Shown: positions 203 to 36,613, counted from the stretch's first letter. The stretch: DNA of 39,269 bases from Actinoplanes sp. (GCA_036557765.1 DATBGW010000139.1:1-39269), one strand, 5' to 3'. Notes: generated from the letters alone by a model not told the origin. Numbers and translations are program-made.

Positions 203-284
203 CCTCCGCGATCTTGGAGTTGTGGTTGGCACGAATGCGGACAGAGTCTGCATAAGGGCAACCACAACTCCAAGATCGCGGAGG
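203..284. repeat. Palindromic REP/REPIN-like element copy 1 (core 210-277)
   Basis: Perfect 26-bp inverted repeat CCTCCGCGATCTTGGAGTTGTGGTTG (203-228) / 259-284 around a 30-nt spacer GCACGAATGCGGACAGAGTCTGCATAAGGG; lies between convergent genes. Confidence 0.95.
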
Positions 285-294
285 GTTTTGGGAG

Positions 295-693
295 TCATCC
301 CGCGCCGCCGGTGAACCGGCCCTCGCCGGCCCGGTTCGTACGGAACCGCAACGCCGACCAGTGATCGTCGATCGCCACCTGGCTGTTCGGCCGCATGTCG
401 AAGTCCGCGACGATCGGCCACAACGAGTCCCGGTTGATGTCGGCCCTGTTGCCCTTGGGATAGGCGATCCACAGCACCCCGGGCTTACCGAGGTCGGCGG
501 CGTGTTCGGACAGCAGCGCACGGGCGTTCTCGGCGCTCTCGACGAACAGCACCGCGGTGCTGGCGGTCGCCATCGCGTCCGCTTCCCGTACGCCGTCGGG
601 CATCGGCGTGAGCAGCGGCAACCGCGCCGGATCCGACAGCCAGACCGTCGTGTTCGGCTTGATCTGCAGCTTGTCCGCAATCGTCTTCGTCAT
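295..693 (-). CDS. Conserved hypothetical protein (DUF3052-like, WIAYPK/DINRD/WSALRF motifs)
   Basis: MTKTIADKLQIKP...LWIAYPKGNRADINRDSLW...QVAIDDHWSALRFR is a recognisable small conserved family; start re-assigned to ATG at 693. Confidence 0.75.
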   Translation of the reverse strand: MTKTIADKLQIKPNTTVWLSDPARLPLLTPMPDGVREADAMATASTAVLFVESAENARALLSEHAADLGKPGVLWIAYPKGNRADINRDSLWPIVADFDMRPNSQVAIDDHWSALRFRTNRAGEGRFTGGAG

Positions 694-772
694 GGATCCC
701 ACGCTGCCACAGCCCTCTCGGGTTTGGTCGATTCTCCGCGCCGACCGGAGGTCCAGGCGCCGGCAGCAGCAC

Positions 773-794
773 TGTCGGGGGTGGCTGATAGACA
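773..794 (+). promoter_or_regulatory. PafBC/RecA-NDp-like DNA-damage promoter motif upstream of recQ
   Basis: TGTCGG(773-778)-N10-TA(789-790)-GAC-A; consensus TGTCGG-N10-TA-N3-T with only the last base mismatched; 6 nt before the GTG start. Confidence 0.55.
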
Positions 795-800
795 TGCCGC

Positions 801-2909
801 GTGGAACAAGTGCGGGACCGAGCCGAGGAGGTGCTGCGCCGGCTCGCCGGCGCGGGTGCCAGGCTGCGCGACGACCAGTGGCGGGCCGTGGCGGCCCTCG
901 TGGTCGACCGGCGCCGGGTGCTCTGCGTCCAGCGAACGGGCTGGGGCAAGTCGGCGGTCTACTTCGTCGCCACGGCGCTGCTGCGCGCCGGCGTCGCGGG
1001 GGAGCCGCCCGCCGGCCCGACGGTGATCGTGTCCCCGTTGCTCGCGCTGATGCGCAACCAGGTGGACGCGGCGGCGCGCGCCGGCATCCGCGCCCGCACG
1101 ATCAACTCGGCGAACCTCGACGAGTGGGACGAGATCACCGCCGAGATCCGCGCCGGTGCCGTGGACGTGCTGTTGATCAGCCCGGAGCGGCTCAACAATC
1201 CCGACTTCCGGGACCACGTGCTGCCCGGGCTCGCCGCGACGACCGGCCTGCTGGTGGTGGACGAGGCGCATTGCGTCTCCGATTGGGGACACGACTTCCG
1301 TCCCGACTACCGGCGGCTGCGGACGTTCCTGGCCGGACTGCCGGGCCGCACGCCGGTGCTGGCGACCACGGCCACCGCGAACGCCCGCGTCGCCGCGGAC
1401 GTGGCCGAGCAGCTGGGCGACGCCCTGGTCCTGCGCGGACCGCTGGACCGTGACTCGCTGCGGCTCGCCGTGGTACGCCTGCCCAGCCCCGCCCACCGGC
1501 TGGCGTGGCTCGCCGACCACCTGGAGCGCCTGCCCGGCTCCGGGATCATCTACACGCTGACGGTGGCCGGGGCCACCGAGATCGCGGACTTCCTCCGGTC
1601 CCGGGGGTTCACGGTCGCCGCCTACACCGGCCAGGCGGAGGACGCCGAGCGTCGGGCCGCCGAGCAGGGTCTGCTGGACAACAAGATCAAGGCGCTGGTC
1701 GCCACCTCGGCGCTGGGAATGGGCTTCGACAAACCGGATCTGGGCTTCGTCGTGCACGTGGGCGCCCCGCCGTCCCCGATCGCGTATTACCAGCAGGTCG
1801 GCCGGGCCGGCCGGGCGGTCGAGCACGCCGAGGTGGTGCTGCTGCCCGGGCCGGAGGATGCCGCGATCTGGCGGTACTTCGCGTCGCTGGCGTTCCCGCC
1901 CGAGGACCAGGTCCGCTCGGTGCTGGCCAACCTGTCGCCGGATCGCCCGCTCTCCACCCAGGCGCTCGAACCGCTTGTCGATCTGCGCCGGACCCGGCTC
2001 GAGATGATGCTCAAGGTGCTCGACGTGGACGGCGCCGTCCGGCGCCAGCGCGGCGGCTGGATCGCCACCGGACAGCCATGGACATACGACGCCGAGCGGT
2101 TGCGCCGGGTCGCCGAGGCCCGGATCGCCGAGCAGCAGTCCATGATCGAGTACGCCGAGACCACGGGTTGCCGGATCGAGTTCCTCCGCCGGTGCCTGGA
2201 CGACGCGGACGCCCGGCCGTGTGGCCGCTGCGATTCCTGTGCGGGGCCGATGTTCGACGCCGAGGTGGCGGCCGGGTCGTTGTCCGCCGCGAACATGTTC
2301 CTGGGCCGGCCCGGTGTCGAGATCTCGCCGAAGAAGCTCTGGCCGACCGGCATGGAAGCGGTCGGTGTGCCGCTGAAGGGCCGCATCGCGCCGGCCGAGC
2401 AGATCCGGCCCGGCCGCGCTGTCGGCCGCCTCGCCGACCTCGGCTGGGGTGCGCGTCTGCGAACCGTGGTGTCGTCCGACGGGGCCATCCCGGCCGACCT
2501 CGCGGCCGCGGTGATCGAAGTGCTCAGGTCCTGGGCGCACGGTGACGACCGCTGGGAGCAGCGTCCGGTCGCCGTCGTCGCGGTCGGCTCCCAACGGCGT
2601 CCCGAGCTCGTGCAGAGCCTCGCGTCGCACGTCGCCGCCGTCGGCCGCCTTCCCCTCCTCGGCACTGTCACGTCGGCACATGCCGGCGAGACCGGGCAGC
2701 GTGGCAACAGTGCGCAGCGCGTCCGCGCGTTGCACGATGCGTTCGGGCTACCGGCCGGATTGGCGGACGCGGTGTCCATGCTCGACGGTCCGGTGCTCCT
2801 GGTCGACGACCTGGTGGAGTCGGGGTGGACGATGACGCTGGCCGGGCGCGTGCTGCGGCAGGCCGGTGCGCCGGCGGTGCTGCCACTCGCGTTGGCGGTG
2901 TCCACATGA
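801..2909 (+). CDS. recQ: RecQ-family ATP-dependent DNA helicase with C-terminal PRTase-like domain
   Basis: Walker A TGWGKS, DEAHCVSDWGHDFRPDY, ATSALGMGFDKPD, YYQQVGRAGR, Zn-binding CR...CGRCDSC; C-terminal VLLVDD..SGWT PRPP-binding-like motif. Confidence 0.93.
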   Translation: MEQVRDRAEEVLRRLAGAGARLRDDQWRAVAALVVDRRRVLCVQRTGWGKSAVYFVATALLRAGVAGEPPAGPTVIVSPLLALMRNQVDAAARAGIRARTINSANLDEWDEITAEIRAGAVDVLLISPERLNNPDFRDHVLPGLAATTGLLVVDEAHCVSDWGHDFRPDYRRLRTFLAGLPGRTPVLATTATANARVAADVAEQLGDALVLRGPLDRDSLRLAVVRLPSPAHRLAWLADHLERLPGSGIIYTLTVAGATEIADFLRSRGFTVAAYTGQAEDAERRAAEQGLLDNKIKALVATSALGMGFDKPDLGFVVHVGAPPSPIAYYQQVGRAGRAVEHAEVVLLPGPEDAAIWRYFASLAFPPEDQVRSVLANLSPDRPLSTQALEPLVDLRRTRLEMMLKVLDVDGAVRRQRGGWIATGQPWTYDAERLRRVAEARIAEQQSMIEYAETTGCRIEFLRRCLDDADARPCGRCDSCAGPMFDAEVAAGSLSAANMFLGRPGVEISPKKLWPTGMEAVGVPLKGRIAPAEQIRPGRAVGRLADLGWGARLRTVVSSDGAIPADLAAAVIEVLRSWAHGDDRWEQRPVAVVAVGSQRRPELVQSLASHVAAVGRLPLLGTVTSAHAGETGQRGNSAQRVRALHDAFGLPAGLADAVSMLDGPVLLVDDLVESGWTMTLAGRVLRQAGAPAVLPLALAVST

Positions 2910-2916
2910 CGGTTCG

Positions 2917-9313: not shown

Positions 9314-11551
9314 GTGGATGAAACAGGGCATTCCGGGGACTCTGGGCCCGCATCGGGCGGTGCTGACAGCGATTCGCGTGATCGCACCCCGGTCAACGGC
9401 TGGGCCACGTCCGACAGCCCGTGGTCCAACGCCGGTGCCGCCCTGGACCCCGAGGATGAGGATCTGCCGGCTTGGCGTCGCGCGTCCGCCGAGATCCGGC
9501 CGTTCACCCGGCAGCACCATTTTGACGAGGTACGCCCATCGGGTACGTCCCGTGGCCTCGCGGCAGCGCCGCCCGACCCGGTCGGGCCGCAGACCGGCTC
9601 CGGCTTTGAAGCGTCCGGCTTTGAAGCGTCCGGCTTTGAAGCGTCCGGCTTTGAAGCGTCCGGCGAGATCCGGCCGCTGACCGAAATCGGCCGCGAGGAC
9701 TCCGGTGGCTCCGGTTTCGGCGATGCCGACGGGTCCGGTGAGCTCGGTGTGCCCCTGGCGCCGCGGCCCAACGACGCCGGACCACGCTGGTCCACCGGAC
9801 GGAGTCGCTTCGCTGATCTTCTTTCGCATCTGCCGCACGGCGCCGGGGCGGCGGCCGCGGAGCTCGACGAGCCGGTGGCGCCGCGGCCGGACCCGTTGCA
9901 GCCGGGCGCCCTGCGGTCGGCCACCCAGCGACCGGACACGCTCGGGTCGGCCGACGAACAGCGGGCACTCGGTGGCCGGGCGATCGACGCCCCGCCGCCG
10001 AGCAGCGCACCCCCGTATCCGTACGAGGGGGATCTCGATGACGCCCGGCGGCAGACGTCACGACCGCCCGGCACCCCGCATCGCGGCTCGGTTCCGCTGT
10101 CCCGGGTCTTTCCGGCGGTACGGCCGGCCGCGCCCGGCGGGCGCCGCGCCGACTGGATCGGCGCCGAGTCCGCCCGGCACGCGGTGGACCCCGGTGCGCC
10201 CCCGGACAGCGTGCCGCCGGCCGGCGAACCACCGCTGACCGGCGAGACCAGCGGGGCCCGTGCGGCTTACGATCCGGCCACGTTTCCGCGGCGCCTGCCG
10301 TACGAGCCGACGTCGCCGGCCGGCCCGGAGACCGACTACCCGATGACCGACGACCCGGAGCCGCCTGCGTTGTCGGGGTCGCCTGGGTTGTCGGGGTCGC
10401 CTGGGTTGTCGGGGTCGCCTGGGTTGACGGGGTCGCCCGCATTCCCGGGGTCGCCCCCGTTCCCGGGGCCGCTCCCGGGCGAGTCGGTGTCCGGGGCGCT
10501 GCCGCAACGCGTGCCGGCCGAGCCGGACGTTCCCACCGTCCCGGAGCCGCCGTCGGTCGAACCGGCCGCCGAGACGCCCGCCCTAGCCCGCATCGCCACG
10601 CATCTGCGCCGCGGCAACCTGATTCCGCCGGGTGAACGCCAGGAGGGCTTCGACGTGCAGGCGATCCTCGCCGCCGTCCAGGAGGTGGCGGGTGTCCGCG
10701 ATGCGTCGCTGCGCACGACCCCGCAGGGCGCGCACAGCCTCCGGCTGGACCTGGCCGAGGGTGCCGATCCGGCGGAGGTGAGCCGCCAGGTGGCGCGGTT
10801 GCTGCAGGACCGGATGGGCCTGGACGCGGCAATGCAGGGCACGCCGGCGCCGGCCGCCGCGCTCCCGGCGACCGGTTCGGCGGCGGTCCCGTTCGTTCCC
10901 ACCCAACCCATCCCGACCGGGCGGGCGTCGGTCATTCCCGCGGCGCGCCCGCCGCAGGAGTTTCCCGACACGCTGTCCACCGCCGCGTCGGCCCCGGTCA
11001 GCGCGCCACCCGCCGACACGCCGCCGGTGTCGCCGGCCGGCCCCGCGTACGTGGCCGGCCCGTCCACGACGGCCGGGACCACCGACAGCGCGCTGCCGGA
11101 GGCGGAGTGCGGGCCGGCGCGGCCGCTCGCCGTCGGCGAACGGCCCGGACAGCGGGTCGTCATCGAGAACGTGCAGGTCAACACGTTCGGCACCGAGGCG
11201 ACCGTGGAGGTACGGCTGGCGGTGGGCGGTCAGGTGGCCGCCGGCACCGCGACCGGGCCGGCCGTCGACGGGTATCTGCTCCGGCTGTGTGCCATGGCCA
11301 CCGCGCACGCCGTCGACGAGCTCCTCTCCGGCGCCGACCATGCCGCCGGGCCGGCCCGGTGCTTTGTCGAGCACGCGGCGTCCGTACCGTTCGGGCCGTT
11401 GCAGGTCGCGGTCGTCGTCCTGTTGCTGTCCTGCGGTACGTGGGTCGAGCAGCTCGCCGGATCCGCCGTGGTCACCGGTGACGATCGGCACGCCGTGGTC
11501 CGCGCCACGCTCGCGGCCGTCAACCGGCGTCTCGAGGCTCTGCTCTCATGA
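9314..11551 (+). CDS. Large Pro-rich hypothetical protein: disordered N-terminal part with tandem repeats and two compact C-terminal domains
   Basis: GAGGAG RBS at 9302-9307 before GTG 9314; folded-looking segments FDVQAILAAVQEVAGVRDA...QVARLLQDRMGL and RVVIENVQV...AVVRATLAAVNRRLEALLS. Confidence 0.7.
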   Translation: MDETGHSGDSGPASGGADSDSRDRTPVNGWATSDSPWSNAGAALDPEDEDLPAWRRASAEIRPFTRQHHFDEVRPSGTSRGLAAAPPDPVGPQTGSGFEASGFEASGFEASGFEASGEIRPLTEIGREDSGGSGFGDADGSGELGVPLAPRPNDAGPRWSTGRSRFADLLSHLPHGAGAAAAELDEPVAPRPDPLQPGALRSATQRPDTLGSADEQRALGGRAIDAPPPSSAPPYPYEGDLDDARRQTSRPPGTPHRGSVPLSRVFPAVRPAAPGGRRADWIGAESARHAVDPGAPPDSVPPAGEPPLTGETSGARAAYDPATFPRRLPYEPTSPAGPETDYPMTDDPEPPALSGSPGLSGSPGLSGSPGLTGSPAFPGSPPFPGPLPGESVSGALPQRVPAEPDVPTVPEPPSVEPAAETPALARIATHLRRGNLIPPGERQEGFDVQAILAAVQEVAGVRDASLRTTPQGAHSLRLDLAEGADPAEVSRQVARLLQDRMGLDAAMQGTPAPAAALPATGSAAVPFVPTQPIPTGRASVIPAARPPQEFPDTLSTAASAPVSAPPADTPPVSPAGPAYVAGPSTTAGTTDSALPEAECGPARPLAVGERPGQRVVIENVQVNTFGTEATVEVRLAVGGQVAAGTATGPAVDGYLLRLCAMATAHAVDELLSGADHAAGPARCFVEHAASVPFGPLQVAVVVLLLSCGTWVEQLAGSAVVTGDDRHAVVRATLAAVNRRLEALLS
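9599..9664 (+). repeat. In-frame 15-bp tandem repeat (SGFEA x4)
   Basis: TCCGGCTTTGAAGCG four perfect copies plus a partial copy. Confidence 0.95.
10369..10476 (+). repeat. In-frame 18-bp tandem repeat (LSGSPG-type x6, degenerating 3')
   Basis: GTTGTCGGGGTCGCCTGG three perfect copies followed by three diverged copies. Confidence 0.9.
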
Positions 11552-11567
11552 ACCGCCTGCTGTCCGG

Positions 11568-12533: not shown

Positions 12534-12551
12534 GCGACCCCACACCCTTCC

Positions 12552-12623
12552 GCGATCTTGGAGTTGTGGTTGCCCTTACGCGGCATTGCGCCCGTTTCGT
12601 TGCAACCACAACTCCAAGATCGC
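12552..12623. repeat. Palindromic element copy 2 (core 12554-12621, reverse orientation)
   Basis: 21-bp perfect IR around the 30-nt spacer CCCTTACGCGGCATTGCGCCCGTTTCGTTG. Confidence 0.95.
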
Positions 12624-12712
12624 TGGGACTGGCGTAGGAGGCCCCGTGCTGGGCTGCGGACCTGGAGAAACGCCTGTGACAGGCCGTCGCTCATGGCACT
12701 CTGGCGTATGTC

Positions 12713-14998: not shown

Positions 14999-15010
14999 TC
15001 GCGTTCCCCG

Positions 15011-15070
15011 CGCGATCTGTTCCATCCCCGCGCGATCTGTTCCCATCCCCCGCGATCTGTTCCCATCCCC
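15011..15070. repeat. 20-bp tandem repeat x3 abutting element copy 3
   Basis: CGCGATCTGTTCC(C)ATCCCC(G) x3; each unit starts with the element's outer-end sequence CGCGATCT. Confidence 0.9.
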
Positions 15071-15146
15071 CGCGAACTTGGAGTTGTGGTTGGCACAAAT
15101 ATGGGCGAAGCCCGCAGAAAGGCAACCATAACTCCAAGATCGCGGG
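15069..15146. repeat. Palindromic element copy 3 (core 15074-15141)
   Basis: One substitution per arm (GAACTT, CAACCATAAC); 30-nt spacer GCACAAATATGGGCGAAGCCCGCAGAAAGG. Confidence 0.93.
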
Positions 15147-17322: not shown

Positions 17323-17404
17323 CCTCGCCGATCTTGGAGTTGTGGTTGCCTTTTTGCGGCTTTGCTCCCTCTCTGTGCCAACCACAACTCCAAGATCGGC
17401 GAGG
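17323..17404. repeat. Palindromic element copy 4 (core 17330-17397, reverse orientation)
   Basis: Perfect 26-bp IR CCTCGCCGATCTTGGAGTTGTGGTTG; 30-nt spacer CCTTTTTGCGGCTTTGCTCCCTCTCTGTGC; between convergent genes. Confidence 0.95.
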
Positions 17405-24518: not shown

Positions 24519-24535
24519 CGAAGTAGGTTGGCGGC

Positions 24536-25075: not shown

Positions 25076-25086
25076 CCTTCCCGTTC

Positions 25087-26388: not shown

Positions 26389-26415
26389 GCAAAGCCGCCG
26401 CCCGCCCCTTCCCCG

Positions 26416-26485
26416 CGATCTTGGAGTTGTGGTTGCCCTTATGGGTGCCTCGTCCGCTTTTGCGCCAACCACAACTCCAAGATCG
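26416..26485. repeat. Palindromic element copy 5 (core 26417-26484, reverse orientation)
   Basis: Perfect arms around the 30-nt spacer CCCTTATGGGTGCCTCGTCCGCTTTTGCGC; followed by re-iterated GATCGGCGGG units to about 26532. Confidence 0.95.
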
Positions 26486-26592
26486 GCGGGGGAAGGCGGG
26501 ATCGGCGGGAGGGCTAGGCGGGATCGGCGGGAAGAAAGTGAGCGGCGGACGTGCGCCCACGGCGGGTGCGGCGGGACTCTAGGATCTCCCGC

Positions 26593-27510
26593 ATGACGCC
26601 CGAAGAGGTCGGCGAGCGGATGATCACGCTGCTCGCGAGCGGCGGCGACGCCGTCCCGCCGATCGCGGGTGTGTCCGGCGGCGGGCCGGGACACGAACGC
26701 GCCGTCGTCGACGTGCCGGTGGCGGCCTGGCGGGCCGCGATTGTGGCGGCTCGGGAGCCGGGCGGGCTGGGCTGCGACTTCTTCGACTGGCTCTCGGCCG
26801 TGGACGAGCTCGACGAGGGCTTCACCGTCGTGGCACATCTGTGGTCGACGGCCGCCAAGCACGGCGTCCTGATCCGCTGCCGGGTGCCGCGGGACAACCC
26901 GGCTGTGGAGTCGATCGTGGACCTGTTCCCCGGTGCCGCATGGCATGAGCGGGAGACGTTCGAGATGTTCGGCATCACGTTCGCCGCGCACCCGGACCTG
27001 CGGCCGCTGCTGCTGCCGCCGGCGTTCGAGGGCCACCCGCTGCGCAAGGAGTTCGTGCTCGCGTCCCGCGTCGCGAAGGCGTGGCCGGGCGCCAAGGAAC
27101 CGGGCGAGTCGGAGTCCGGGGCAGCCAAGCGCGCCCCGATGCGTCCGCCCGGCGTCCCCGACCCGAACGAATGGGGACCGCTGAAGGGCAAGGTGCCGCC
27201 ACCGGAGACCCCGGCCCGGCGCGCACCCGGCGAACGCCCGGGCCGCCCGGCGGGGGGCGAAAGGCCTGAGCGCCCTGCGCATAGGCAACGATCCGAGCGT
27301 CCCGCCCCGCCGGCTGCCGGAGAGCGGCCGGAGCGTCCGGCAAGGCCGGAGCGGTCGGAGCGGCCAGCGAGGCCGGCCACAGGAGAGCGCCCGGCGAGGC
27401 CGACCACAGGAGAGCCCCCGGCGAGACCGACCGCTGAAGAACGGCCGGAGCGACCCGACCGGTCCGCCCCCCAGCCCCCGGCGACGCCGCTCGACGGGGA
27501 GGGCGACTGA
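26593..27510 (+). CDS. nuoC: NADH-quinone oxidoreductase subunit C with ERP-repeat C-terminal tail
   Basis: FFDWLSAVD, GAAWHERETFEMFGITF, GHPLRKEF; start re-assigned to ATG 26593 (TAGGAT -10 upstream). Confidence 0.92.
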   Translation: MTPEEVGERMITLLASGGDAVPPIAGVSGGGPGHERAVVDVPVAAWRAAIVAAREPGGLGCDFFDWLSAVDELDEGFTVVAHLWSTAAKHGVLIRCRVPRDNPAVESIVDLFPGAAWHERETFEMFGITFAAHPDLRPLLLPPAFEGHPLRKEFVLASRVAKAWPGAKEPGESESGAAKRAPMRPPGVPDPNEWGPLKGKVPPPETPARRAPGERPGRPAGGERPERPAHRQRSERPAPPAAGERPERPARPERSERPARPATGERPARPTTGEPPARPTAEERPERPDRSAPQPPATPLDGEGD

Positions 27511-28469
27511 TGCCGCTCTGGCTGGACCTGGCCATCCGGGTCATCGCGGTCGTCGCCGGCTTCCTCCTCCTACCGTTGGTCGTCGGCCAGGTCGAACACA
27601 AGGTGATGGCGCACATGCAGGGCCGCCTCGGCCCCATGTACGCCGGCGCGTACCACGGCTGGGCGCAGCTCATCGCCGACGGCGTTAAGTTCGTGCAGAA
27701 GGAGGACATCACCCCGGGCCAGGCGGATCGGAGCGTGTTCCGGCTCGCGCCGCTCGTCGCGCTGTTCCCGTACCTGCTGATCCTGGTCGCCATTCCGCTC
27801 GGACCCGGTGGCCTGGTCGCCCAGGCCCTGGACGTCGGGCTGTTCTTCGTGCTCGCAGTGCTCGGCGTCGGCGTGGTCGCCGTGCTCATGTCGGCGTGGG
27901 CGTCGGCCAACAAGTACAGCCTGCTCGGCGGCCTGCGCGGGGCGGCACAGCTGCTGGCGTACGAGCTGCCGCTGGTGCTCGCCGCGGCCAGCGTCGCGAT
28001 GGCCGCCGGCACGCTGAGTCTGCCCGGCATCGTGGCGGCGTGGTCGCCGTGGTGGCTGCTCTGGCAGCTGCCCGCCGCGGTGGTGTTCTTCGTCGCCGGG
28101 GTGGCGGAGATCCGGCGGCCGCCGTTCGACATGCCGATCGCCGACTCCGAGCTGGTGTTCGGCTACATGACCGAGTACACCGGTCTGCGCTTCGCGTTCT
28201 TCCTGCTAGCCGAGTACGTCGGCATCGTGGTGATCGCCGCGCTCACCACCGTGCTGTTCCTGGGCGGCTGGCACGGCCCGTTCGCCGAACAGCTCGGCTG
28301 GCTCTGGACGCTGATCAAGGTGTTCGCGGTGTCGTTCCTGATCATCTGGCTGCGGGTCACCTACCCGCGGCTGCGCGAGGACCAGCTGCAACGTCTGTGC
28401 TGGCTGGTGCTGGTCCCGGTAGCGCTGGCTCAGCTCGTGTTGACCGCGGTCGTAAAGGTGCTGACCTAG
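27510..28469 (+). CDS. nuoH: NADH-quinone oxidoreductase subunit H
   Basis: EHKVMAHMQGRLGP, QLIADGVKFVQKE, NKYSLLGGLR, PFDMP..DSEL..GYMTEY, YPRLREDQL. Confidence 0.96.
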   Translation: MPLWLDLAIRVIAVVAGFLLLPLVVGQVEHKVMAHMQGRLGPMYAGAYHGWAQLIADGVKFVQKEDITPGQADRSVFRLAPLVALFPYLLILVAIPLGPGGLVAQALDVGLFFVLAVLGVGVVAVLMSAWASANKYSLLGGLRGAAQLLAYELPLVLAAASVAMAAGTLSLPGIVAAWSPWWLLWQLPAAVVFFVAGVAEIRRPPFDMPIADSELVFGYMTEYTGLRFAFFLLAEYVGIVVIAALTTVLFLGGWHGPFAEQLGWLWTLIKVFAVSFLIIWLRVTYPRLREDQLQRLCWLVLVPVALAQLVLTAVVKVLT

Positions 28470-29035
28470 AAGTAGCGAGGGGTCAGCGCGCTGATCGGGA
28501 TCTCGATCGGCCACGGCTCCGGCGTACCGATGATCTCGCCGAATGCCCCGACGGGCTCGTACACCTCGTGCGCAGGATCGATCTTGTGAGCGTGCACCAC
28601 GATGCCGCCGTCGGTCTCGATCCGCCAGTAGTACGGGATGCCCGCCCGGGCGTAGAGCGCCGGCTTGGTGATCCGGTCCATGCTCTGTGAGGTCGGCGAG
28701 ACGATCTCCACGGCGAGGACGACCTCGTGTGGCGCGAAGCGATGCAGGGCCCGCTGGGCCGCCTCGTCGGTGACCACCAGCACGTCGGGGATGAACGACC
28801 GCCGCGGGCTGATCCGCACCTCGACGGCCTGCGTCACTTCATACGCCCGCGGGCAGCTCTGCTCCAGCGCCACCATCAGGCGCATAGCGATGATCTGGTG
28901 GACCGATGTGGGCGACGGGGACACGAGCAGCGCGCCGTCGAGCAACTCGCGGCGCACGCCGTCCTCGGGCAGAGAGTCGAGATCATCGGTGCTCCAGACG
29001 TGCCCCGGTGGTCTGTACGGCAGCGCAGCGGTCAT
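28466..29035 (-). CDS. Uma2 family PD-(D/E)XK endonuclease
   Basis: RELLDGALLVSPSP..H, IPDVLV, LAVEIVSP, DRITK..LYARAGIPYYW; start re-assigned to ATG 29035. Confidence 0.9.
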   Translation of the reverse strand: MTAALPYRPPGHVWSTDDLDSLPEDGVRRELLDGALLVSPSPTSVHQIIAMRLMVALEQSCPRAYEVTQAVEVRISPRRSFIPDVLVVTDEAAQRALHRFAPHEVVLAVEIVSPTSQSMDRITKPALYARAGIPYYWRIETDGGIVVHAHKIDPAHEVYEPVGAFGEIIGTPEPWPIEIPISALTPRYF

Positions 29036-29119
29036 CGCGAGCCTGCGAACGTCACGGTACTGCAAGATCTGAGGGGGTGTGTTCCCGCACCGTGGACGGA
29101 CGGGGCAGGATAGGGCCTT

Positions 29120-29788
29120 GTGACTGACAACGGGGAGCGGCACGGGCAGGGCAAGGGTCTGCTCAACGGGCTCGCGGTCACCTTCCGGACGATGACCAGG
29201 CGCTCGACCACCCGCCAGTACCCGGACGTCGAGCCGGACCTCCCGCCCCGCTCCCGCGGCGTCATCGCGCTGCTCGAGGAGAACTGCACGGTCTGCATGC
29301 TGTGCGCCCGCGAGTGCCCGGACTGGTGCATCTACATCGACTCGCACAAGGAGGAGGTCGTTGTCCCCGGCGCGGCGCGGCCCCGGCAGCGCAACGTGCT
29401 CGACCGGTTCGACATCGACTTCTCCCTCTGCATGTACTGCGGCATCTGCATCGAGGCCTGCCCGTTCGACGCGCTCTATTGGACCCCCGAATTCGAGTAC
29501 GCCGAGTACGACATCCGTAACCTGCTGCACGACAAGGACCGCCTCGGCGACTGGATGCCGTCCGTTCCGCCGCCGCCGCCGCACGACCCGATCGGCGAGC
29601 CGTCGAAAGAGGAGGCCACCGCCGCGCGCAAGGCCGCCGGCCCGGGCACGCCAACCGCCGCCAAGACCGCCGCGGGGGTACGGGCGCCGGTGCGCCCAAC
29701 CGCAGAGCAGGGTGTACCGCCTTCCCGGCCGGCGTCCGAACCTCCCGAGGCCGCTGCGCCGCCGCCGGGCGAGGAGCCGGAGACGTGA
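29120..29788 (+). CDS. nuoI: NADH-quinone oxidoreductase subunit I (2x[4Fe-4S])
   Basis: [12 protein letters not shown] and [12 protein letters not shown]; Pro/Ala-rich tail. Confidence 0.95.
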
Positions 29789-30324
29789 CCATCGCCAACA
29801 TGACCGTCGCGGACGCGCTGCTGCTCGCGCTCGGCGTCATCGCGGTCGGCTCCGGCGCCCTCGTCGTGACCAGCACGCATCTGGTCCGCGCCGGCCTGTA
29901 CCTGGTGGTGAGCCTGGGTTCGGTCGCCGGCCTCTACCTCGTGCTCGGCGCCGAGCTGGTGGCCTGGGTCCAGGTGCTGGTGTACGTCGGCGCGGTGGTG
30001 GTGCTGCTGCTGTTCGCGGTGATGCTGACCCGCGCCCCGATCGGCCCGTCGGGAGATCTCGACCGGCCGGCCTGGGCGGCCGCGATCATCGGCGCCGGCG
30101 TGGGTCTCGGTCTCGCCGCGCTGCTGGTCGGCGCGTTCCACTGGACCCTGTATCCGCTGCCGGTGCCCGGCACGGCCGCCCAGATGGGCGGGGAGATCTT
30201 CGGCGCCTGGGTGCTGCCGTTCGAGGTGCTGTCGATCCTGCTGCTGGCGGCCCTGGTCGGCGCGATCGTGCTGTCCCGGCCGGACATCGGGGCGCGTCGG
30301 AACGCGGAGGCGGACACCCACTGA
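29785..30324 (+). CDS. nuoJ: NADH-quinone oxidoreductase subunit J
   Basis: [44 protein letters not shown]; start may be ATG 29800. Confidence 0.94.
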
Positions 30325-30644
30325 TGCATGCCGTCATCCCGTATCTCACGGGCGCCCTGCTCTTCGGGCTGGGCGTCTACGGCGTGCTGCGGCGCCGCAA
30401 CGCGATCCTCGTGCTCATGGCGGTCGAGCTGATGCTCAACGCGGTAAACGTCATCTTCGTGACCGCCGACGTCACCGTCCGCGGCACCGGCGCGCACGCG
30501 GGCGCGGTCTTCGCCCTGTTCGTCATCGTGCTGGCCGCCGCCGAGGTGGGGGTCGGGCTCGCCATCGTGCTGCAGTACTACCGGGTGCGGCACGCGGTCG
30601 CGGTCGACGAGGTGCGGCTGGATGACGAAAAGGTCCCGCAATGA
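30324..30644 (+). CDS. nuoK: NADH-quinone oxidoreductase subunit K
   Basis: GVLRRRNAILVLMAVELMLNAVN, AAAEVGVGLAI; ATG overlaps the nuoJ stop. Confidence 0.94.
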   Translation: MHAVIPYLTGALLFGLGVYGVLRRRNAILVLMAVELMLNAVNVIFVTADVTVRGTGAHAGAVFALFVIVLAAAEVGVGLAIVLQYYRVRHAVAVDEVRLDDEKVPQ

Positions 30645-32488
30645 GTGCGGGCGCGCTGCTGCCGGGCGTACCGCTGGCATTGGGTCTGATCGGGCTGCTG
30701 CTGACGCCCGGCGACGGCGACCGGAGGGTACGGCGCGCGGCCGCCGCGCTCGGCGTGGCCGGCGCCGCCATCGTCCTCGCCGTCGCGGTGATCCTGCTGT
30801 TCGCGGAGAACGGCATTGTGGAGTCGAGCCGGATCTGGGTGCGGTTCGGCGACATCACCGTGACCCTCGGCACGTCGCTCGGGCCGGCGGCGTTGTATGT
30901 GGCGATCGCCGTCGCGGTGGTCGCGCTGGCCGTGCAGGTCTACTCGATCGGGTACCTGCACGACGATCCCCGGTACGCCCCGTACGCCGCGCAGGTGAGC
31001 CTGTTCACCGGCGCGATGCTGCTGGTCGTCACGTCCGGGGACCTCCTGTTGCTGCTGATCGGCTGGGAGGTGATGGGCGCCTGCTCATACCTCCTGATCG
31101 GGCACGACCGGCGCCTGCCGGACGCGCCGGCCGCCGCGGTCAAGGCGTTCCTGGTGACCCGCGTCGGTGACGTCGGATTTCTGCTCGGTGTCGTGGTGCT
31201 CGCCGTCGGGGCCGGCACCACGCGGATCTCAACCGTGCTCGCGCACGACTATCCCTCCGGGACACTCACTGCGGCGGTGCTCCTGCTGCTGGCCGGCGTC
31301 GCCGGTAAGAGCGCCCAGTTCCCGTTGCACACGTGGCTCCCGGACGCGATGGCCGGCCCCACCCCGATCTCCGCGCTGATCCACGCCGCGACCATGGTGG
31401 CGGCCGGCGTCTACGTCGTGTTCCGGTTGTACCCGCTGTTCGAACACGCTCCGGCGGCGCTCGCCGTGCTCGGCGTGATGGCGGCCGTGACGCTGTTGCT
31501 TGGTGCGTTGGCGGCCACCGCCGAGGACGACATCAAACGTGTGCTGGCCTGGTCCACAGTGTCCCAGCTCAGCTACATGACCGGTGCGCTCGCCGTCGGA
31601 TCGCCCGGCGCCGCGCTGTTCCACCTCCTGACCCACGCCGCGTTCAAAGCGCTGCTGTTCCTTGCTGCCGGCGCGGTCATCCACGCCGTCGGCACGAACT
31701 CGATGTCCCGGATGGGTGGCCTGCGCAAGGACATGCCGGTGACGTTCTGGTCGATGGCGATCGGCCTGGGCGCCCTGGCCGGGGTACCGCCGCTGTCCGG
31801 CTTCTGGTCCAAGGAGAACGTCCTGGTGGCGGCAGCGCACGCCACCGAGGGTGGCGGCCCGGCGCCCGCCTGGGTGGGCTGGATGGTGTGGATCGCCGCG
31901 CTCGCCGGTGTCGCGATCACCGCCTGGTACGCGACGCGGCTGCTGCTCAGGACGTTCTTCGGCGTGGCCCGGACCGCCGTCACGGCGCACGACCCGCCCG
32001 CGGTGATGCTGTGGCCGGTGATGCTGCTCGCGGTCGCCGCCGCGGTGCGGGGGCTTGCGGCGTTCCTGCCCGCGTTCCGGACGGCACTGGAGCTGGAGGC
32101 GCCGCACCTCGGTGTGTCGATCGTGCTTCCGCTCGTGCTGCTGGTGCTCGGCGCGGGGACGGCATGGTGGCTCTGGCGGGCCGCGCCCGCCGCCGACCCG
32201 GCCAGAGCGCTCGGTCCGTTGCGTCCGGTGTTCGCGAACGGTTTCTACCTCGACGCCGTGCAGGATCGCCTGGTCGTCCGGCCGGTGTACGCGCTCGCCG
32301 GTCTGGTCCGCAGCGTGGACGAAACAGTGGTCGACGGCGCGGTCGACGGCACCGGCGCGTCCACGACGCAGCTCGGAGCGCGGGTCGCCGCCGTCCACCG
32401 CGCCGCGTTGCCGTGGGCGACCACGGCGGTGTTCACCGGCGCGCTGCTGCTCGGCGTGGCCGCCGCGATCTACGGGGCCGCGACATGA
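30641..32488 (+). CDS. nuoL: NADH-quinone oxidoreductase subunit L
   Basis: GWEVMGACSYLLIG, RVGDVG, GKSAQFPLHTWLPDAMAGPTPISALIHAATMV, HAAFKALLFL, SGFWSKE. Confidence 0.96.
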   Translation: MSAGALLPGVPLALGLIGLLLTPGDGDRRVRRAAAALGVAGAAIVLAVAVILLFAENGIVESSRIWVRFGDITVTLGTSLGPAALYVAIAVAVVALAVQVYSIGYLHDDPRYAPYAAQVSLFTGAMLLVVTSGDLLLLLIGWEVMGACSYLLIGHDRRLPDAPAAAVKAFLVTRVGDVGFLLGVVVLAVGAGTTRISTVLAHDYPSGTLTAAVLLLLAGVAGKSAQFPLHTWLPDAMAGPTPISALIHAATMVAAGVYVVFRLYPLFEHAPAALAVLGVMAAVTLLLGALAATAEDDIKRVLAWSTVSQLSYMTGALAVGSPGAALFHLLTHAAFKALLFLAAGAVIHAVGTNSMSRMGGLRKDMPVTFWSMAIGLGALAGVPPLSGFWSKENVLVAAAHATEGGGPAPAWVGWMVWIAALAGVAITAWYATRLLLRTFFGVARTAVTAHDPPAVMLWPVMLLAVAAAVRGLAAFLPAFRTALELEAPHLGVSIVLPLVLLVLGAGTAWWLWRAAPAADPARALGPLRPVFANGFYLDAVQDRLVVRPVYALAGLVRSVDETVVDGAVDGTGASTTQLGARVAAVHRAALPWATTAVFTGALLLGVAAAIYGAAT

Positions 32489-33996
32489 ACGGCGTCCTGC
32501 TCGTGTCCGTGCTGGCCGTGCCGGCGGTCGGCGCGCTCGTGGTCGCGCTGTTCCCGGCGCACCGGGACCGGACCGCGCGCCAGGTGGCCGCGGCAATCGC
32601 CGCGGTGACGTTCGTCCTGACCGTCCTGCTGGGGGTGAGCCGCAACGCCACCTGGTTCTCGTACGGCGCGGGCGTGCCGTCCATCCGGCCGTGGGCCGAA
32701 CTCAACGTCGCCTGGGTGCCCGCCCTGACCATCGACTTCCACCTCGGCGTGGACGGCCTCTCGTACCCGCTGATCGTGCTGACCGGGCTGCTGACGCTGC
32801 TCTGCTGCCTGTACACGGTCCGCACCGTCCCCGACGGCGGCCCGGGTCGGGTGCTTGCGGCGCTGCTGCTGGTCCTCGAGGTCGGCATCGTCGGCACGTT
32901 CCTGGCGCTCGACCTGGTGTTGTTCTTCATCTTCTTCGAGGTCGTACTGCTGCCGATGTACGCGGTGATCGCCGGCTGGGGTGGGCTGGAGCGCCGGCGG
33001 GCGGCCCGCAAGTTCGTGCTCTACACGCTGTTCGGCTCGGTCCTGCTGCTGCTCGGCGTGCTGACCGTGGTGGTGGCGGCCGGCACCGGCGACATGATGG
33101 CGCTGGCCGGCGGTCTGGGATTGTCCACGCGTACCCAGTACGCCGCCTTCGCGCTGTTCGCTGTCGCGTTCGCGGTCAAGGCGCCGCTGTGGCCACTGCA
33201 TACCTGGCTGCCGGACGCGCACACCGAGGCGCCGACGGTCGGGTCCGTGATCCTGGCCGGCGTGCTGCTCAAGATGGGCACGTACGGCCTGATCCGGGTG
33301 GGCGTGGGTGTGGCGCCGCTCGGCGCGGCGTGGGCGGCGCCGGTGATCGGCGTGCTGGCGGTGGCGGCGATCGTCGTCGGATCCCTGGTGTGCCTGCGCC
33401 TGACCGAGCTGAAACGGCTGATCGCGTACTCCAGCGTCAGCCACATGGGATTCGTCCTGCTCGGCATCGCGACGCTGACGGTGACCGGTGTGCAGGCGGC
33501 GCTGATCGGCAACGTGGCACACGGCGTGATCACCGGACTGCTGTTCTTCCTGGCCGGGGCCATCAAGGACCGCGCGCACACCGGCCACCTGGCCGCGCTG
33601 GGCGGGCTGCGGGAGACCGCTCCGCGGCTGGCCGGGCTGCTCGGATTCGCCGCGATCGCCTCCCTTGGCCTGCCCGGTCTGGCCGGGTTCTGGGGCGAGG
33701 CGTTCGCCGTGCTGGCGTCCGTGCGGCGGGGCGGCGACCTGTGGATCGCGCTGGCCGTGATCGCCGCCCTCGGCGGGGCGCTCACCGCGGCGTACTTCCT
33801 GCGCCTCCTGCGACGGGTCACCCACGGACCGGCCGGCCCCGCGGTCCGCGACCTCCCGCAGCCACGGGTGTCCGGGGTGGAATGGGCGGCCTGGGCACCG
33901 CTCGTCGGGCTGGCCCTGGCGATCGGGCTGGCGCCGGCGCTGGTGCTGGCCGCGACGGCCGATCCGATCGCCGCGCTCACCGAGGTGGTGCGGTGA
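32485..33996 (+). CDS. nuoM: NADH-quinone oxidoreductase subunit M
   Basis: GVDGLS, FFEVVLLPMY, AVKAPLWPLHTWLPDAHTEAPT, LLKMGTYG, KRLIAYSSVSHMG; ATG 32485 overlaps the nuoL stop. Confidence 0.96.
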   Translation: MNGVLLVSVLAVPAVGALVVALFPAHRDRTARQVAAAIAAVTFVLTVLLGVSRNATWFSYGAGVPSIRPWAELNVAWVPALTIDFHLGVDGLSYPLIVLTGLLTLLCCLYTVRTVPDGGPGRVLAALLLVLEVGIVGTFLALDLVLFFIFFEVVLLPMYAVIAGWGGLERRRAARKFVLYTLFGSVLLLLGVLTVVVAAGTGDMMALAGGLGLSTRTQYAAFALFAVAFAVKAPLWPLHTWLPDAHTEAPTVGSVILAGVLLKMGTYGLIRVGVGVAPLGAAWAAPVIGVLAVAAIVVGSLVCLRLTELKRLIAYSSVSHMGFVLLGIATLTVTGVQAALIGNVAHGVITGLLFFLAGAIKDRAHTGHLAALGGLRETAPRLAGLLGFAAIASLGLPGLAGFWGEAFAVLASVRRGGDLWIALAVIAALGGALTAAYFLRLLRRVTHGPAGPAVRDLPQPRVSGVEWAAWAPLVGLALAIGLAPALVLAATADPIAALTEVVR

Positions 33997-35423
33997 CCCA
34001 GCCCATCGACCACGCCGCGTTGCTGCCGCTCTACGCGGCCGCCGCCGCCGCCCTGCTGGTGCTGATCGCGGACCTGGTCACCGGCCGGCGGGGCCCGGTC
34101 ATCGGCACCGCGGCGGTGGGCGCGACCGTGACCGCGGTGGCCGCGGCCGTCAGCGCGAGCCGGCCTGCAACGTTCTGTGTGGGGACGGCGTGCTCGTGGG
34201 TGCCCGCCCCGCGGGCCGCGACCGTGGCGGTGCTGTTCGCGGGGCTGACGCTCGGGGTGCTGGCGCTGTCCGTGCCCGCGCTCCGCGCGGGCACGGCCCC
34301 CGCCGGCGAGGTGTGCTTCCTGCTGGTGAGCTCGATGACCGGTGGCGTGGTGATCGGGTACGCGGGCGACCTGATCACGCTGATCGTCGGGCTGGAAACG
34401 CTCACGCTGCCGCTGTACGTGCTGGTCGGCCTGCGCCGGTTCGCGCCGCGGGAGCGGCCGACGACGGCCGGCGCGTCCGCCGCCGTCACATTCCTGCTTG
34501 TAAGCGTCATCTCGACGGCGATCGCCCTGCTCGGCGCGGCGTTGCTGTACGCGTCCACCGGCGCGTTGCACCTGGCACTGTTGCACCAGGCGACCGGCCC
34601 GCTGGCGCCGCTCGGCACGGTCGGCATGTCGCTGGTGGTGATCGGCTTCGCGTTCAAGGTTGCAGCGGTCCCGTTGCACGCGTGGGCGCCGCCGACGTAC
34701 GACGGCGCGCCGCTGCCGATCGCCGCCTATCTGTCGACCGCGTCCAAGCTCGGCGGCGTCCTGGCACTGGTGGCGGTCGTGCCGCGGGTGGACACCGGTC
34801 CGCTGCTCGCGGTACTGGCGGTGCTGACCATGACGGTCGGGAACCTCGTGGCGCTGCGGCAGACCCGGATGGTCCGTTTGCTGGCGTGGTCGTCGGTGGC
34901 CCAGGCGGGGTACATCCTCGCGCCGCTGGTGGCCGGCGGAAGCGGCGTGGTGGCCGCGATCGCGTACGCGGGGTTCTTCGTGGTGCTGGAACTGCTGGCG
35001 TTCGGTGTCGTGGTGGCGCTGCGCCCACCCGGGGCCGATGGTGGCGAGATCGTGGCCTATCGCGGCGCGGCCCGGCGGTCGCCGTGGCTGGGCGCCGCGT
35101 TCGTGTTGGCGCTGGCCGGCCTGGCCGGGCTGCCGCCCGGCCTGGCCGGCCTGTTCGCGAAGGTCACGATCGTGGACTCGCTCATCGACACCGGCTGGGG
35201 CTGGCTGGCCGGGGTGGTGGCGGTGAACGCCGTGATCGCCCTCGCCTACTACATCCGGGTGGCGGCCGTCCCGTACGCGGGCCCGGTCGGCCTGGCGGTG
35301 GCCGATCTGCGCCCCCCGAAGCTGCCGGTCACTTGGCCGGTGGCGGCTGCTTTGGTAGCCGCGGCCGGCGTGGCCGTGGTCCTGGGCTTCGCCCCCCAGC
35401 TCCTCTTCAACGCCCTGAGCTGA
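33993..35423 (+). CDS. nuoN: NADH-quinone oxidoreductase subunit N
   Basis: GLETLTLPLYVL, FKVAAVPLHAWAPPTYDGAP, STASK, GNLVAL.Q, RLLAWSS, LAGLPP; GTG 33993 overlaps the nuoM stop. Confidence 0.94.
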   Translation: MTQPIDHAALLPLYAAAAAALLVLIADLVTGRRGPVIGTAAVGATVTAVAAAVSASRPATFCVGTACSWVPAPRAATVAVLFAGLTLGVLALSVPALRAGTAPAGEVCFLLVSSMTGGVVIGYAGDLITLIVGLETLTLPLYVLVGLRRFAPRERPTTAGASAAVTFLLVSVISTAIALLGAALLYASTGALHLALLHQATGPLAPLGTVGMSLVVIGFAFKVAAVPLHAWAPPTYDGAPLPIAAYLSTASKLGGVLALVAVVPRVDTGPLLAVLAVLTMTVGNLVALRQTRMVRLLAWSSVAQAGYILAPLVAGGSGVVAAIAYAGFFVVLELLAFGVVVALRPPGADGGEIVAYRGAARRSPWLGAAFVLALAGLAGLPPGLAGLFAKVTIVDSLIDTGWGWLAGVVAVNAVIALAYYIRVAAVPYAGPVGLAVADLRPPKLPVTWPVAAALVAAAGVAVVLGFAPQLLFNALS

Positions 35424-35441: not shown

Positions 35442-35524
35442 CCTCCGCGATCTTGGAGCTGTGGTTGCCCTTTTGCGGCTTTCGGGCCCATTCGTGCCAA
35501 CCACAACTCCAAGATCGGCGGAGG
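35442..35524. repeat. Palindromic element copy 6 (core 35449-35516, reverse orientation)
   Basis: One substitution in the left arm (GAGCTGTGG); 30-nt spacer CCCTTTTGCGGCTTTCGGGCCCATTCGTGC. Confidence 0.95.
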
Positions 35525-35531
35525 GAGCTGC

Positions 35532-35559
35532 GTTCAGCGAGCGCACAGGCATCTCACAG
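35532..35559 (+). promoter_or_regulatory. Possible OmpR/MprA-type direct-repeat operator upstream of htpX
   Basis: GTTCAG, GCACAG, TCACAG with an exact 11-bp period. Confidence 0.35.
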
Positions 35560-35637
35560 TCAACGGTGGATGAATTCCAAGCGGATCGACGTTCACTGGG
35601 ATGTGGGCTCACCGGCCCGCATGCTGAAGGAGACAAC

Positions 35638-36525
35638 GTGCATCGCCATCACAACGGCCTCAAGACGGCCGCTTTGTTGGGTCTGCTCACCGCCATGATT
35701 CTCGCCGTCGGCTACTGGCTCGGCGGCACCGGCGGACTGGTGTTCGCCGTCATGATCTCGCTGGCTCTGAACGTCGGCAGCTACTTCTTCTCCGACAAGA
35801 TCGCGCTGCGGGCCATGCGGGCGCGGCCGGTCAGCGAGGCGGAGTTTCCCGCGTTCTACCAGATCGTCCGCGAACTCGCGACCGAGGCCGGCCAGCCGAT
35901 GCCGCGGCTATATGTGAGCCCGTCGATGCAGCCGAACGCGTTCGCGACCGGCCGCAACCCGCAGAACGCCGCGGTCGCCGTGACCCTGGGCATCACCCAG
36001 CTGCTGGATCGGCGCGAGCTGCGCGGCGTCATCGGGCACGAGCTGTCCCATGTGTACAACCGGGACATCCTCATCTCGAGCGTCGCCGCGGCGCTTGCCG
36101 GCATCATCACGATGCTGGCCCAGCTGGCGATCTTCCTGCCGCTCGGCGGCGGTGACGACGAGGACTCGCCGAACCCTGTCTCGCTGCTGCTCATGCTGAT
36201 CCTGGGCCCGTTGGCCGCGAGCGTCATCCAGCTCGCCATCAGCCGTAACCGCGAGTACCAGGCGGACGCGTCCGGCGCGACGCTGACCCGCGACCCGCTG
36301 GCACTGGCCAGTGCGCTACAGAAGATCCAGTACGGTACCCAGCGCCTGCCGTTGCCGGCCGAGGGCCAGCTGACCAGCTCGGCGCACCTGATGATCGCCA
36401 ACCCGTTCCGGGGCGGCGGGATGGCGTCGCTGTTCTCGACGCACCCGCCGATGGAGGAGCGGATCCGCCGGCTGCACGAGCTGGCCGCCGTGACCGGCAC
36501 CGGCCCGGTGCGATACGCCCGCTGA
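35638..36525 (+). CDS. htpX: Zinc metalloprotease HtpX (M48)
   Basis: PNAFATGRNP, GVIGHELSHV.NRD, SRNREYQAD, LFSTHPP..ERI; AAGGAG RBS before GTG 35638. Confidence 0.96.
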   Translation: MHRHHNGLKTAALLGLLTAMILAVGYWLGGTGGLVFAVMISLALNVGSYFFSDKIALRAMRARPVSEAEFPAFYQIVRELATEAGQPMPRLYVSPSMQPNAFATGRNPQNAAVAVTLGITQLLDRRELRGVIGHELSHVYNRDILISSVAAALAGIITMLAQLAIFLPLGGGDDEDSPNPVSLLLMLILGPLAASVIQLAISRNREYQADASGATLTRDPLALASALQKIQYGTQRLPLPAEGQLTSSAHLMIANPFRGGGMASLFSTHPPMEERIRRLHELAAVTGTGPVRYAR

Positions 36526-36543
36526 CCCCCATCCCCTTCCCCG

Positions 36544-36613
36544 CGATCTTGGAGTTGTGGTTGCCTTTTTGTCCGATGAGGACATATTCGATCCAACCAC
36601 AACTCCAAGATCG
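36544..36613. repeat. Palindromic element copy 7 (core 36545-36612, reverse orientation)
   Basis: Perfect arms around the 30-nt spacer CCTTTTTGTCCGATGAGGACATATTCGATC. Confidence 0.95.

Follow-up and report, generated by a model that had tools for sequence, protein, structure and literature searches.

What holds two arms of DNA constant in sequence and in distance from each other, while the DNA between them varies, is the question raised by a stretch of 39,269 nucleotides from Actinoplanes sp. (GCA_036557765.1, DATBGW010000139.1:1-39269), which was analysed over its whole length and is referred to here as the window. Between positions 203 and 36,613, the window contains seven dispersed palindromes of 68 bp, each of which consists of two inverted arms of 19 bp on either side of an oriented spacer of 30 nt. 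We conclude that these palindromes, which are comparable to repetitive extragenic palindromes (REPs), are non-autonomous repeats that probably owe their spread, as well as their rewriting in place, to a cognate nuclease of the AbiEi-DUF559 (Vsr-like) type, for which a candidate gene is located between two copies of the repeat on another contig of the same genome. That the palindromes form a real, high-copy and polymorphic repeat family with a cognate nuclease gene is well supported, and there is a fair chance that the mechanism is new.

The repeat family in the window and in the source genome

The seven elements, and the tail adjoining one of them, are located as follows.

Element 1, 210..277, plus strand: 19-bp arm, 30-nt oriented spacer of the internal-hairpin subfamily, 19-bp arm
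Element 2, 12554..12621, minus strand: 20 bp past the stop of an alpha/beta-hydrolase gene
Left tail of element 3, 14999..15073, plus strand: three tandem partial copies of flank and arm start (..CGCGATCT..)
Element 3, 15074..15141, plus strand: DUF3152 gene on one side, ThiF/rhodanese gene on the other side
Element 4, 17330..17397, minus strand: between convergent genes
Element 5, 26417..26484, minus strand: between a DUF2252 gene and the NADH dehydrogenase cluster
Element 6, 35449..35516, minus strand: after the last NADH dehydrogenase subunit gene
Element 7, 36545..36612, minus strand: 19 bp past the stop of the M48 (HtpX-like) protease gene

An earlier account of these palindromes, made from the DNA of the window alone (the sequence-only reading), agrees exactly with our recount in the coordinates of the seven cores, in the three substitutions across the 14 arms, and in the length (30 nt), sequence and orientation of all seven spacers, with copies 1 and 3 forward and the other five reverse; no such arms were expected by chance, as judged from 100 shuffles. 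The GATC ends that it described are present, but the conservation runs about 4 nt farther outward, and in element 1 a G/CGG extension is conserved on both sides (pair at about 203-284). The elements form stable hairpins (z -6.5 to -12.9), and the Rfam search proposed in that reading gave 0 model matches in the window. The left tail of element 3 appears to be a footprint of slippage or repair.

The source genome (G000; 3.29 Mb, 70.7% GC, 54% complete) contains the window as contig C139, and near-identical sequences are present in soil metagenomes. The named organisms with related proteins are Micromonospora and Verrucosispora, which places the genome in the Micromonosporaceae. With up to three mismatches allowed, 1164 arms were identified in G000, of which 948 were exact; since the counts drop steeply with the number of mismatches (948, 167, 34 and 15), the truncation imposed by the cut-off is minor. 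These arms form 529 pairs, with a spacer of 30 nt in 504 pairs, 29 nt in 16, 31 nt in four and some other length in five. Both the many hundreds of copies per genome and the tight spacer length (524 of 529 pairs at 29-31 nt) had been predicted from the window. Elements with a 30-nt spacer occur at a density of about 153 per Mb. Another 106 arms were unpaired, and among those listed many were located at contig ends or in partial tandem duplications; because of those at contig ends, the repeats probably contribute to the fragmentation of the assembly. The assembly also mixes strains, as indicated by about 30 contig-end overlaps with 93-99% identity, including allelic ones.

The per-column deviation is 1.2% and 0.8% in the two arms and 32% in the spacer. 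As many as 191 arm changes are one-sided, a single one is two-sided and none is compensatory, from which it follows that the arms are constrained in sequence and not by pairing alone; for the same reason, arm-to-arm conversion is unsupported at the arm positions. The base just outside GATC is G in 99-100% of 488 elements, and is followed by CGG, GCG or ACG. Counted at the left and right ends of these elements, the outward tetramers include GCGG (284/312), GGCG (77/72) and GACG (46/58), the last of which reads CGTC inward, and the eight most frequent tetramers do not include GTAG. Between the two ends of an element, there is a weak concordance of outward bases 2-4 (z 6.1), and beyond the conserved end bases a purine-rich tail extends outward for about 10-25 nt.

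The spacer had been described as variable, which it is, but it is not random. Although 496 of the 504 spacers of 30 nt are distinct, every one can be oriented, and they fall into about three subfamilies that have apparently recombined. All four gametes were observed at 209 of the 210 pairs of common spacer sites, with r2 declining over distance, from 0.10 to 0.007. Nearest-neighbour elements differ at 14.8% of the spacer sites, as compared to 2.0% of the arm sites, and the nearest-neighbour distance between spacers is 4.4, as compared to 6.2 after shuffling, which shows that the spacers are mutually related; those that share a contig are no more alike than others (12.70 and 12.67). Spacer positions 6-7, 17-18 and 26-27 are A-rich, with peaks about 10 nt apart, and the similarity of the profile at lag 10, a lag picked after inspection of the profile and with lag 19 likewise high, gave a permutation p of 0.0035. 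Pairing within the spacer is barely above the column expectation (0.369 and 0.328, best diagonal).

The tails, by comparison, are unique to each site. Their likeness is not above a Markov null and is independent of spacer relatedness, and co-transposed tails were therefore rejected. Contigs C44/C250, C352/C378 and C320 were excluded from these tail and spacer statistics; the first two pairs, which have one flank in common and lie at contig ends, are perhaps assembly artefacts or rearrangements and were not used as evidence. Target-site duplications (TSDs), the absence of which had been noted in the window, were not detected in the genome either: the direct-repeat statistic was 5.08, as compared to 5.10 for shuffled pairings (n=474), and inverted target duplications of more than 4 nt showed no excess over the null. 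Extra partial arms were found in 43 of 948 flanks, against a background of about 1%, as partial tandem duplications of arm and flank.

A candidate partner nuclease gene

In G000, 82 genes have arms on both flanks, and one of these encodes a DUF559 protein of 277 amino acids (C71:254-1084). An element is located 25 bp downstream of this gene and another, in the opposite orientation, 193 bp upstream. It is the single gene between the two repeats, with the other called neighbours outside, and there is accordingly no toxin gene next to it between the repeats. The sequence-only reading had expected the cognate enzyme outside the window and had listed DUF559/Vsr-like nucleases among the possible partners, and the product of the C71 gene, which belongs to that class, is very probably the cognate partner of the repeats.

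Two TTATCCACA boxes lie between the upstream element and the gene start (C71:1145-1170). One to three boxes of the type TT(A/G)TCCACA precede the start of the nuclease gene, and a TCCACA-type box was found in 27 of 29 loci of the family (L177-L205). Since only 7 of the 504 elements in G000 have such boxes nearby, the boxes belong to the gene cassette. We take them to resemble DnaA boxes, and they may tie expression of the nuclease to replication.

The structural model of the C71 protein (pLDDT 94) consists of two parts. Residues 1-173 resemble AbiEi (6y8q; Z 11.7, root-mean-square deviation (rmsd) 4.3, 169 aligned), while residues 178-277 resemble the homing endonuclease I-Bth0305I (3r3p; Z 12.5, rmsd 1.9, 91 aligned); the C-terminal region also resembles Vsr (1cw0; Z 10.0, rmsd 2.1, 95 aligned), and NGO0050 was matched within residues 176-277. 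The Pfam matches, to AbiEi_1 and MTES_1575, were weak. The Vsr fold, the conserved acidic residues and the EYDGxxH motif are all present, and E181, D214, E225 and H231, which are invariant in 120 sequences, are presumably the catalytic residues, to judge from the Vsr-type motif.

Other candidates were set aside. A copy of the gene on contig C320 was rejected as a second gene copy, as it is an allele of the C71 locus and not a paralogue. Two weak, broken or distant relatives of the nuclease (C244:2840-3062 and C178:3702-4532) are preceded by a TCCACA- or TGTGGACAA-type box and have none of the GATC-family repeats close by. The M48 protease gene in the window (35517-36544), which is bracketed on both sides, is regarded as a bystander. 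A bracketed gene on C333, which we read as encoding a Uma2-like nuclease, was rejected as partner, as of its three paralogues a single one has an arm within 100 bp, and this on just one side, and none of six homologue loci in repeat-rich genomes is bracketed. In the 54%-complete genome there was no match to Y1_Tnp (PF01797), the domain of the REP-associated tyrosine transposases (RAYTs), a single IS110 match was located on a contig without arms, and no DDE transposase was recognised among the 82 double-flanked genes, the N-termini of which were read by eye. Ku is present in G000.

Co-variation of the nuclease gene and the repeat

In 40 relatives, the exact arm is all but missing, with at most two matches in each; the unpublished genome G031 enters only such tallies of relative genomes. 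A looser end pattern was identified in at least 13 copies in 8 of 131 genomes of the genus, and the closest homologues of the nuclease in the genus, those in G094 (66%) and G021 (48%), sit in two of these eight genomes, where relatives of the element, 67-69 nt long, bracket them. Among 300 genomes of the Micromonosporaceae, a close homologue was found in 35 of the 47 repeat-rich genomes, as compared to 33 of the 253 others, counts in which kin are not independent. At 28 of the 29 best family loci (50-58% identity), a GATC-ended palindrome was located beside the gene, in 22 cases on both sides, as compared to 2 of 56 control windows. A related-locus search of the genome contigs gave one distant locus only.

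Homologue loci in metagenomes have at least one GATC-ended palindrome in nine of nine cases. Where the protein identity is 84-91%, the arms are identical to those of G000; at 51-70% identity the repeat is 68-69 nt long in five of six loci, and at 42-51% it is 56 nt long in three. The repeat thus drifts together with the protein across the metagenome loci. Homologues that are more distant have, for the most part, private palindromes on their flanks that are unrelated to the present repeat.

Repeat lengths at homologue loci (n=83) were 47-50 nt in 9, 54-59 nt in 16 and 66-70 nt in 55, and 77-78 nt was observed in 6 of 43 copies in G094. These length classes (about 48, 57, 68 and 78 nt) suggest that the arms are spaced in helical phase, and would fit a protein that measures the distance from arm to arm, as the sequence-only reading had proposed. 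A point against helical-phase spacing is provided by G099, in which a sister family of 48 nt usually has a third arm (77 nt) and adjoins a distant nuclease subfamily (L155, L156, L159), so that its 77-mers are 48-mers with an extra arm.

Filled and empty sites

Polymorphic occupancy, which a mobile family would lead one to expect, was observed both in the population and among relatives. One pair of contigs from G000 represents a filled (C87) and an empty (C265) allele of the same site: the flanks are 99% identical, and 105 bp in the filled allele (18, 68 and 19 bp) stand in place of 29 unrelated bp in the empty one, with no target duplication. Both neighbouring stop codons differ, TAA as compared to TAG on the left, and a protein end of FRS-TAA as compared to FRSP-TGA on the right. 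The empty allele of 29 bp was recovered letter for letter in two of four sequencing runs, X1, which is possibly the source sample, and X2. It carries no trace of an arm or tail, and the filled allele resembles other occupied sites, with typical tails and TAA stops. When the four runs were compared to window positions 11500-27500 at 85% likeness, none of the matches listed crossed an element, in a background of noise from other organisms.

At five of the six window sites examined (all but element 1), relatives with conserved neighbours lack the element; the neighbours of element 2 are unconserved. No element is present at the site orthologous to element 3 in G021, G064, G094 and G096, in the gap of only 30-91 bp orthologous to element 5 in G096, G123 and G021, or in the gap of 26-39 bp orthologous to element 6 in G064 and G021. 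At about the site of element 4 (17301-17415) there is an unrelated long palindrome in G096 and G123 (L114, L116), and there are tandem repeats in G021; the palindrome suggests that hot spots are common to different repeat families. At the site of element 7 (36525-36746), G096 and G123 (L117, L127) have a terminator-like GC hairpin after the M48 gene, and G094 and G064 have neither hairpin nor element; element 7 may have overwritten a terminator. The nuclease cassette itself is absent from the orthologous site in G021, where the gap is 76 bp, and is inverted in L140.

Existing copies also appear to be rewritten. In the allele pair C71/C320, the right tail is wholly different up to the neighbouring stop codon. 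In the upstream element of the cassette, orthologous spacers have diverged at 14-16 of 30 sites and the arms around them at 0-1 of 38. The spacer at L139 is three changes from a paralogue in G000 and 16 from its orthologue.

Short GC-rich tandem repeats are often found between the repeat and the neighbouring gene, at cassettes as well as at empty orthologous sites (for example L073 downstream, L009 1185-1260 and L126), and are possibly repair scars. Two further dispersed repeats were identified in G000. One of these is structured and unrelated to the GATC family, with 20 matches of a 16-mer core and GAGCGAAGCGAG-like flanking words (for example C65:1993, C343:513 and C22:3213). The other has 27 matches of a 16-mer and is tandem with a period of about 71 bp (for example C26:5810-6040, C52:7364-8040 and C311:9471-9840).

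Placement relative to genes

Gene positions were taken from our own codon-model caller (3075 genes), which stands in place of a standard annotation. For the 424 elements with both neighbours called, 167 junctions are convergent, 196 tandem and 61 divergent; another seven elements lie inside called genes and 73 at contig edges. Convergent junctions are favoured, with 167 of 424 as compared to 222 of the 1275 gaps that measure 70 bp or more (odds ratio 9.4), and at tandem junctions the orientation is biased (124 and 72, p 2.5e-4). Of the stop codons located no more than 60 bp from an element, 95 of 424 are TAA, as compared to 83 of 753 at comparable gene ends that have no element (p 7e-8) and 180 of 2027 at gene ends overall. 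In the window, the cluster of NADH dehydrogenase subunit genes (26551-35423) is bounded by elements 5 and 6.

Proposed mechanism

In the mechanism that we propose, the N-terminal winged-helix/AbiEi-like region of the nuclease would recognise the sequence of the two arms, held at a constant distance that amounts to about 6.5 helical turns from one end to the other, and the Vsr-type domain would nick or cut the DNA at the arms or immediately beyond them, as well as at new targets. Host repair would then resect a few tens of bp and patch in a core copied from another element, joined by newly made purine-rich tails through slippage and/or Ku-dependent end joining. Repeated rounds of cutting and patching at existing copies would swap segments of the spacer, while the arms stay at the consensus. 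The surviving events would mainly be those that do no damage to coding sequence or that still provide a stop codon, which would explain the location just behind 3' ends. The gene and its repeats would occasionally move or invert as a cassette.

Several observations weigh against this mechanism. The link between enzyme and repeat is drawn wholly from genomic evidence, and another mobiliser could be missing in a genome that is 54% complete. There is a single filled/empty pair, its filled allele is present on contig C87 of the metagenome-assembled genome alone, with no contig from the four runs bridging the site, and gain and loss could not be polarised with relatives, in whose matches the two genes are not adjacent and the C-termini are variable. 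In the pair C71/C320 the arms differ more (2/38) than the spacer (1/30). The divergence of orthologous spacers (37-53%) is not far above that of third positions in the neighbouring gene (28-29%), because of which fast drift alone could account for the spacers, and the four-gamete outcome could stem from recurrent mutation. The excess of TAA could reflect gene class. The association across genomes is also incomplete: G064 has 46 similar repeats and a best protein-profile match of only 6.8e-7, 12 of the 47 repeat-rich genomes are without a match at 1e-45 (only 8 candidates were scored in each), and another 33 genomes encode the protein but match the strict pattern fewer than 8 times, several of them having GATCATG or GATCAAG ends instead. 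Finally, the sister-family repeats of G101 vary from 50 to 76 nt and contain internal tandem repeats.

A more far-reaching reading, which we put forward only tentatively, is that this overwriting represents a separate class of selfish DNA, in which the target is deleted, a copy is written with new tails, spacers are re-templated, arms are held in helical phase and expression is linked to replication, all in the absence of transposase chemistry. The family would then be an actinobacterial counterpart of REP/RAYT systems that is of independent origin.

Alternative explanations

The repeats could instead be sites selected by the host, such as terminators, mRNA stabilisers or sites for nucleoid proteins, that are homogenised by recombination and merely bound by the protein, for example as an operator. 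AbiEi proteins are autoregulators that bind inverted repeats. The strong convergent-junction bias, the orientation bias at tandem junctions, the stable hairpins, and the position of element 7 where G096 and G123 carry a terminator-like hairpin are all in line with this explanation. We nevertheless consider it unlikely, since an RNA selected for structure should show the compensatory arm changes that are lacking here, and since the abundant form is confined to few lineages (8 of 131 genus genomes) and is missing at the orthologous sites of close relatives. It would also leave unexplained the conserved nuclease site, the copies downstream and upstream of the gene, and an allele pair of the replacement type.

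Alternatively, the family could consist of miniature inverted-repeat transposable elements (MITEs) moved by a conventional transposase (RAYT/IS200, IS110 or another) encoded in the unassembled part of the genome, with the nuclease gene captured between two copies. The low completeness of the genome leaves room for such an enzyme, and in G064 the repeats persist without a close homologue of the nuclease. This is a rather improbable explanation given that Y1_Tnp gave no match and the sole IS110 match is on an arm-free contig, that there is no TSD signal and the target DNA is replaced rather than duplicated, and that chance capture cannot account for 28 of 29 homologues being bracketed by repeats that drift with them, while the bracketed Uma2-like gene on C333 is bracketed at none of its six homologue loci.

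Least probable is that the nuclease is a caretaker or resolvase that removes cruciforms, with C265 as a derived excision and new copies arising by replication slippage and template switching: the partial tandem duplications of arm and flank (also at 14999-15073 in the window) and the unpolarised change between C87 and C265 would agree with it, but genomes with the gene tend to contain many copies, C265 has no arm or tail trace whereas C87 has typical tails and TAA stops, and slippage cannot reach distant sites, nor are spacers on the same contig more alike.

Significance and comparison with known systems

The multiplication of short palindromes is understood solely for systems that have a RAYT transposase. 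In the present case, a single partner gene, of another enzyme class, can be identified for a repeat family that reaches about 150 copies per Mb, and a natural pair of filled and empty alleles defines the product as replacement with no duplication, new tails and altered stop codons. With a single partner gene and such an allele pair at hand, the question is directly testable with one protein of 277 amino acids and a substrate of 68 bp. If the proposed mechanism is correct, the widespread "DUF559/AbiEi domain" genes of actinomycetes would gain a function, would modify the 3' ends of genes, and regions with terminators, at hundreds of sites, and may help explain the fragmented assemblies in this lineage. 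Should the overwriting prove to be a class of its own, it might serve as a tool for targeted writing of DNA.

MITEs have terminal inverted repeats and are moved by DDE transposases. The present elements are likewise short and non-coding, with terminal inverted repeats, high copy number and polymorphic occupancy, but they differ from MITEs in that there is no TSD and the interior is mosaic and of fixed length; a DDE partner was not recognised among the 82 double-flanked genes of the incomplete genome. They differ from a structured RNA family in the 0 Rfam matches and 0 compensatory arm changes, and from a CRISPR array in that the arms are inverted, the copies dispersed and the spacers mutually related.

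The catalytic domain shares its fold and the EYDGxxH motif with I-Bth0305I (PDB 3R3P), an EDxHD homing endonuclease, and with Vsr (PDB 1CW0), and spread by cutting and repair is plausible for such enzymes as well as here. In contrast to homing endonucleases, the main thing copied here appears to be a dispersed non-coding repeat, placed at non-allelic sites, and not an intron or a gene. The N-terminal 170 residues fold like AbiEi antitoxins and Rv2827c (PDB 6Y8Q, 1ZEL), whereas, in contrast to AbiEi in type IV toxin-antitoxin systems, they are here fused to a nuclease, with no adjacent gene for a nucleotidyltransferase toxin between the bracketing repeats, and are associated with a genome-wide repeat family. 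The MTES_1575 Vsr-REase is described, in the portion of PMC3710099 available to us, only as a domain fused to HEPN proteins.

Among actinobacterial repeats, the unexplained stem-loop family Myt-1 (72 bp, 75 copies) is similar in size and is likewise a structured repeat of intergenic type in an actinobacterium, a likeness of description and not of sequence; no enzyme is named for it in the accessible part of PMC2267715, and the Micromonosporaceae are not listed in the survey table found there. We found no paper linking DUF559, AbiEi or MTES_1575 genes to dispersed palindromes in a search that excluded supplements, ISfinder and most subscription papers.

The closest parallel is provided by REP/REPIN-RAYT systems, REPtrons and TIRtrons, which, according to the available parts of PMC3733652 and 10.1101/2021.07.10.451892, likewise comprise short palindromes between genes, in hundreds of copies, that lie for the most part behind 3' ends and at convergent or tandem junctions. 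By the same sources, the enzyme gene of a REPtron is low in copy number and has members of its own repeat family on its flanks, a feature shared by the C71 gene and 28 of 29 homologue loci here, and the ends of GTAG REPs often supply stop codons (PMC3733652), in which they resemble the present elements. CGTC repeats are said in that part of PMC3733652 to have no dedicated transposase, and Actinobacteria are not mentioned in it. The differences lie in the enzyme, which is an AbiEi-like protein with a Vsr/PD-(D/E)XK nuclease domain and not an HUH Y1 tyrosine transposase, in the absence of a GTAG tag, with a CGTC-like end at about one in ten ends, in arms that are not small hairpins themselves, and in targets that are replaced, with tails unique to each site. 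The system would work like a REPtron, as a REP-like repeat with a dedicated enzyme, and differs from it in enzyme class and end tags.

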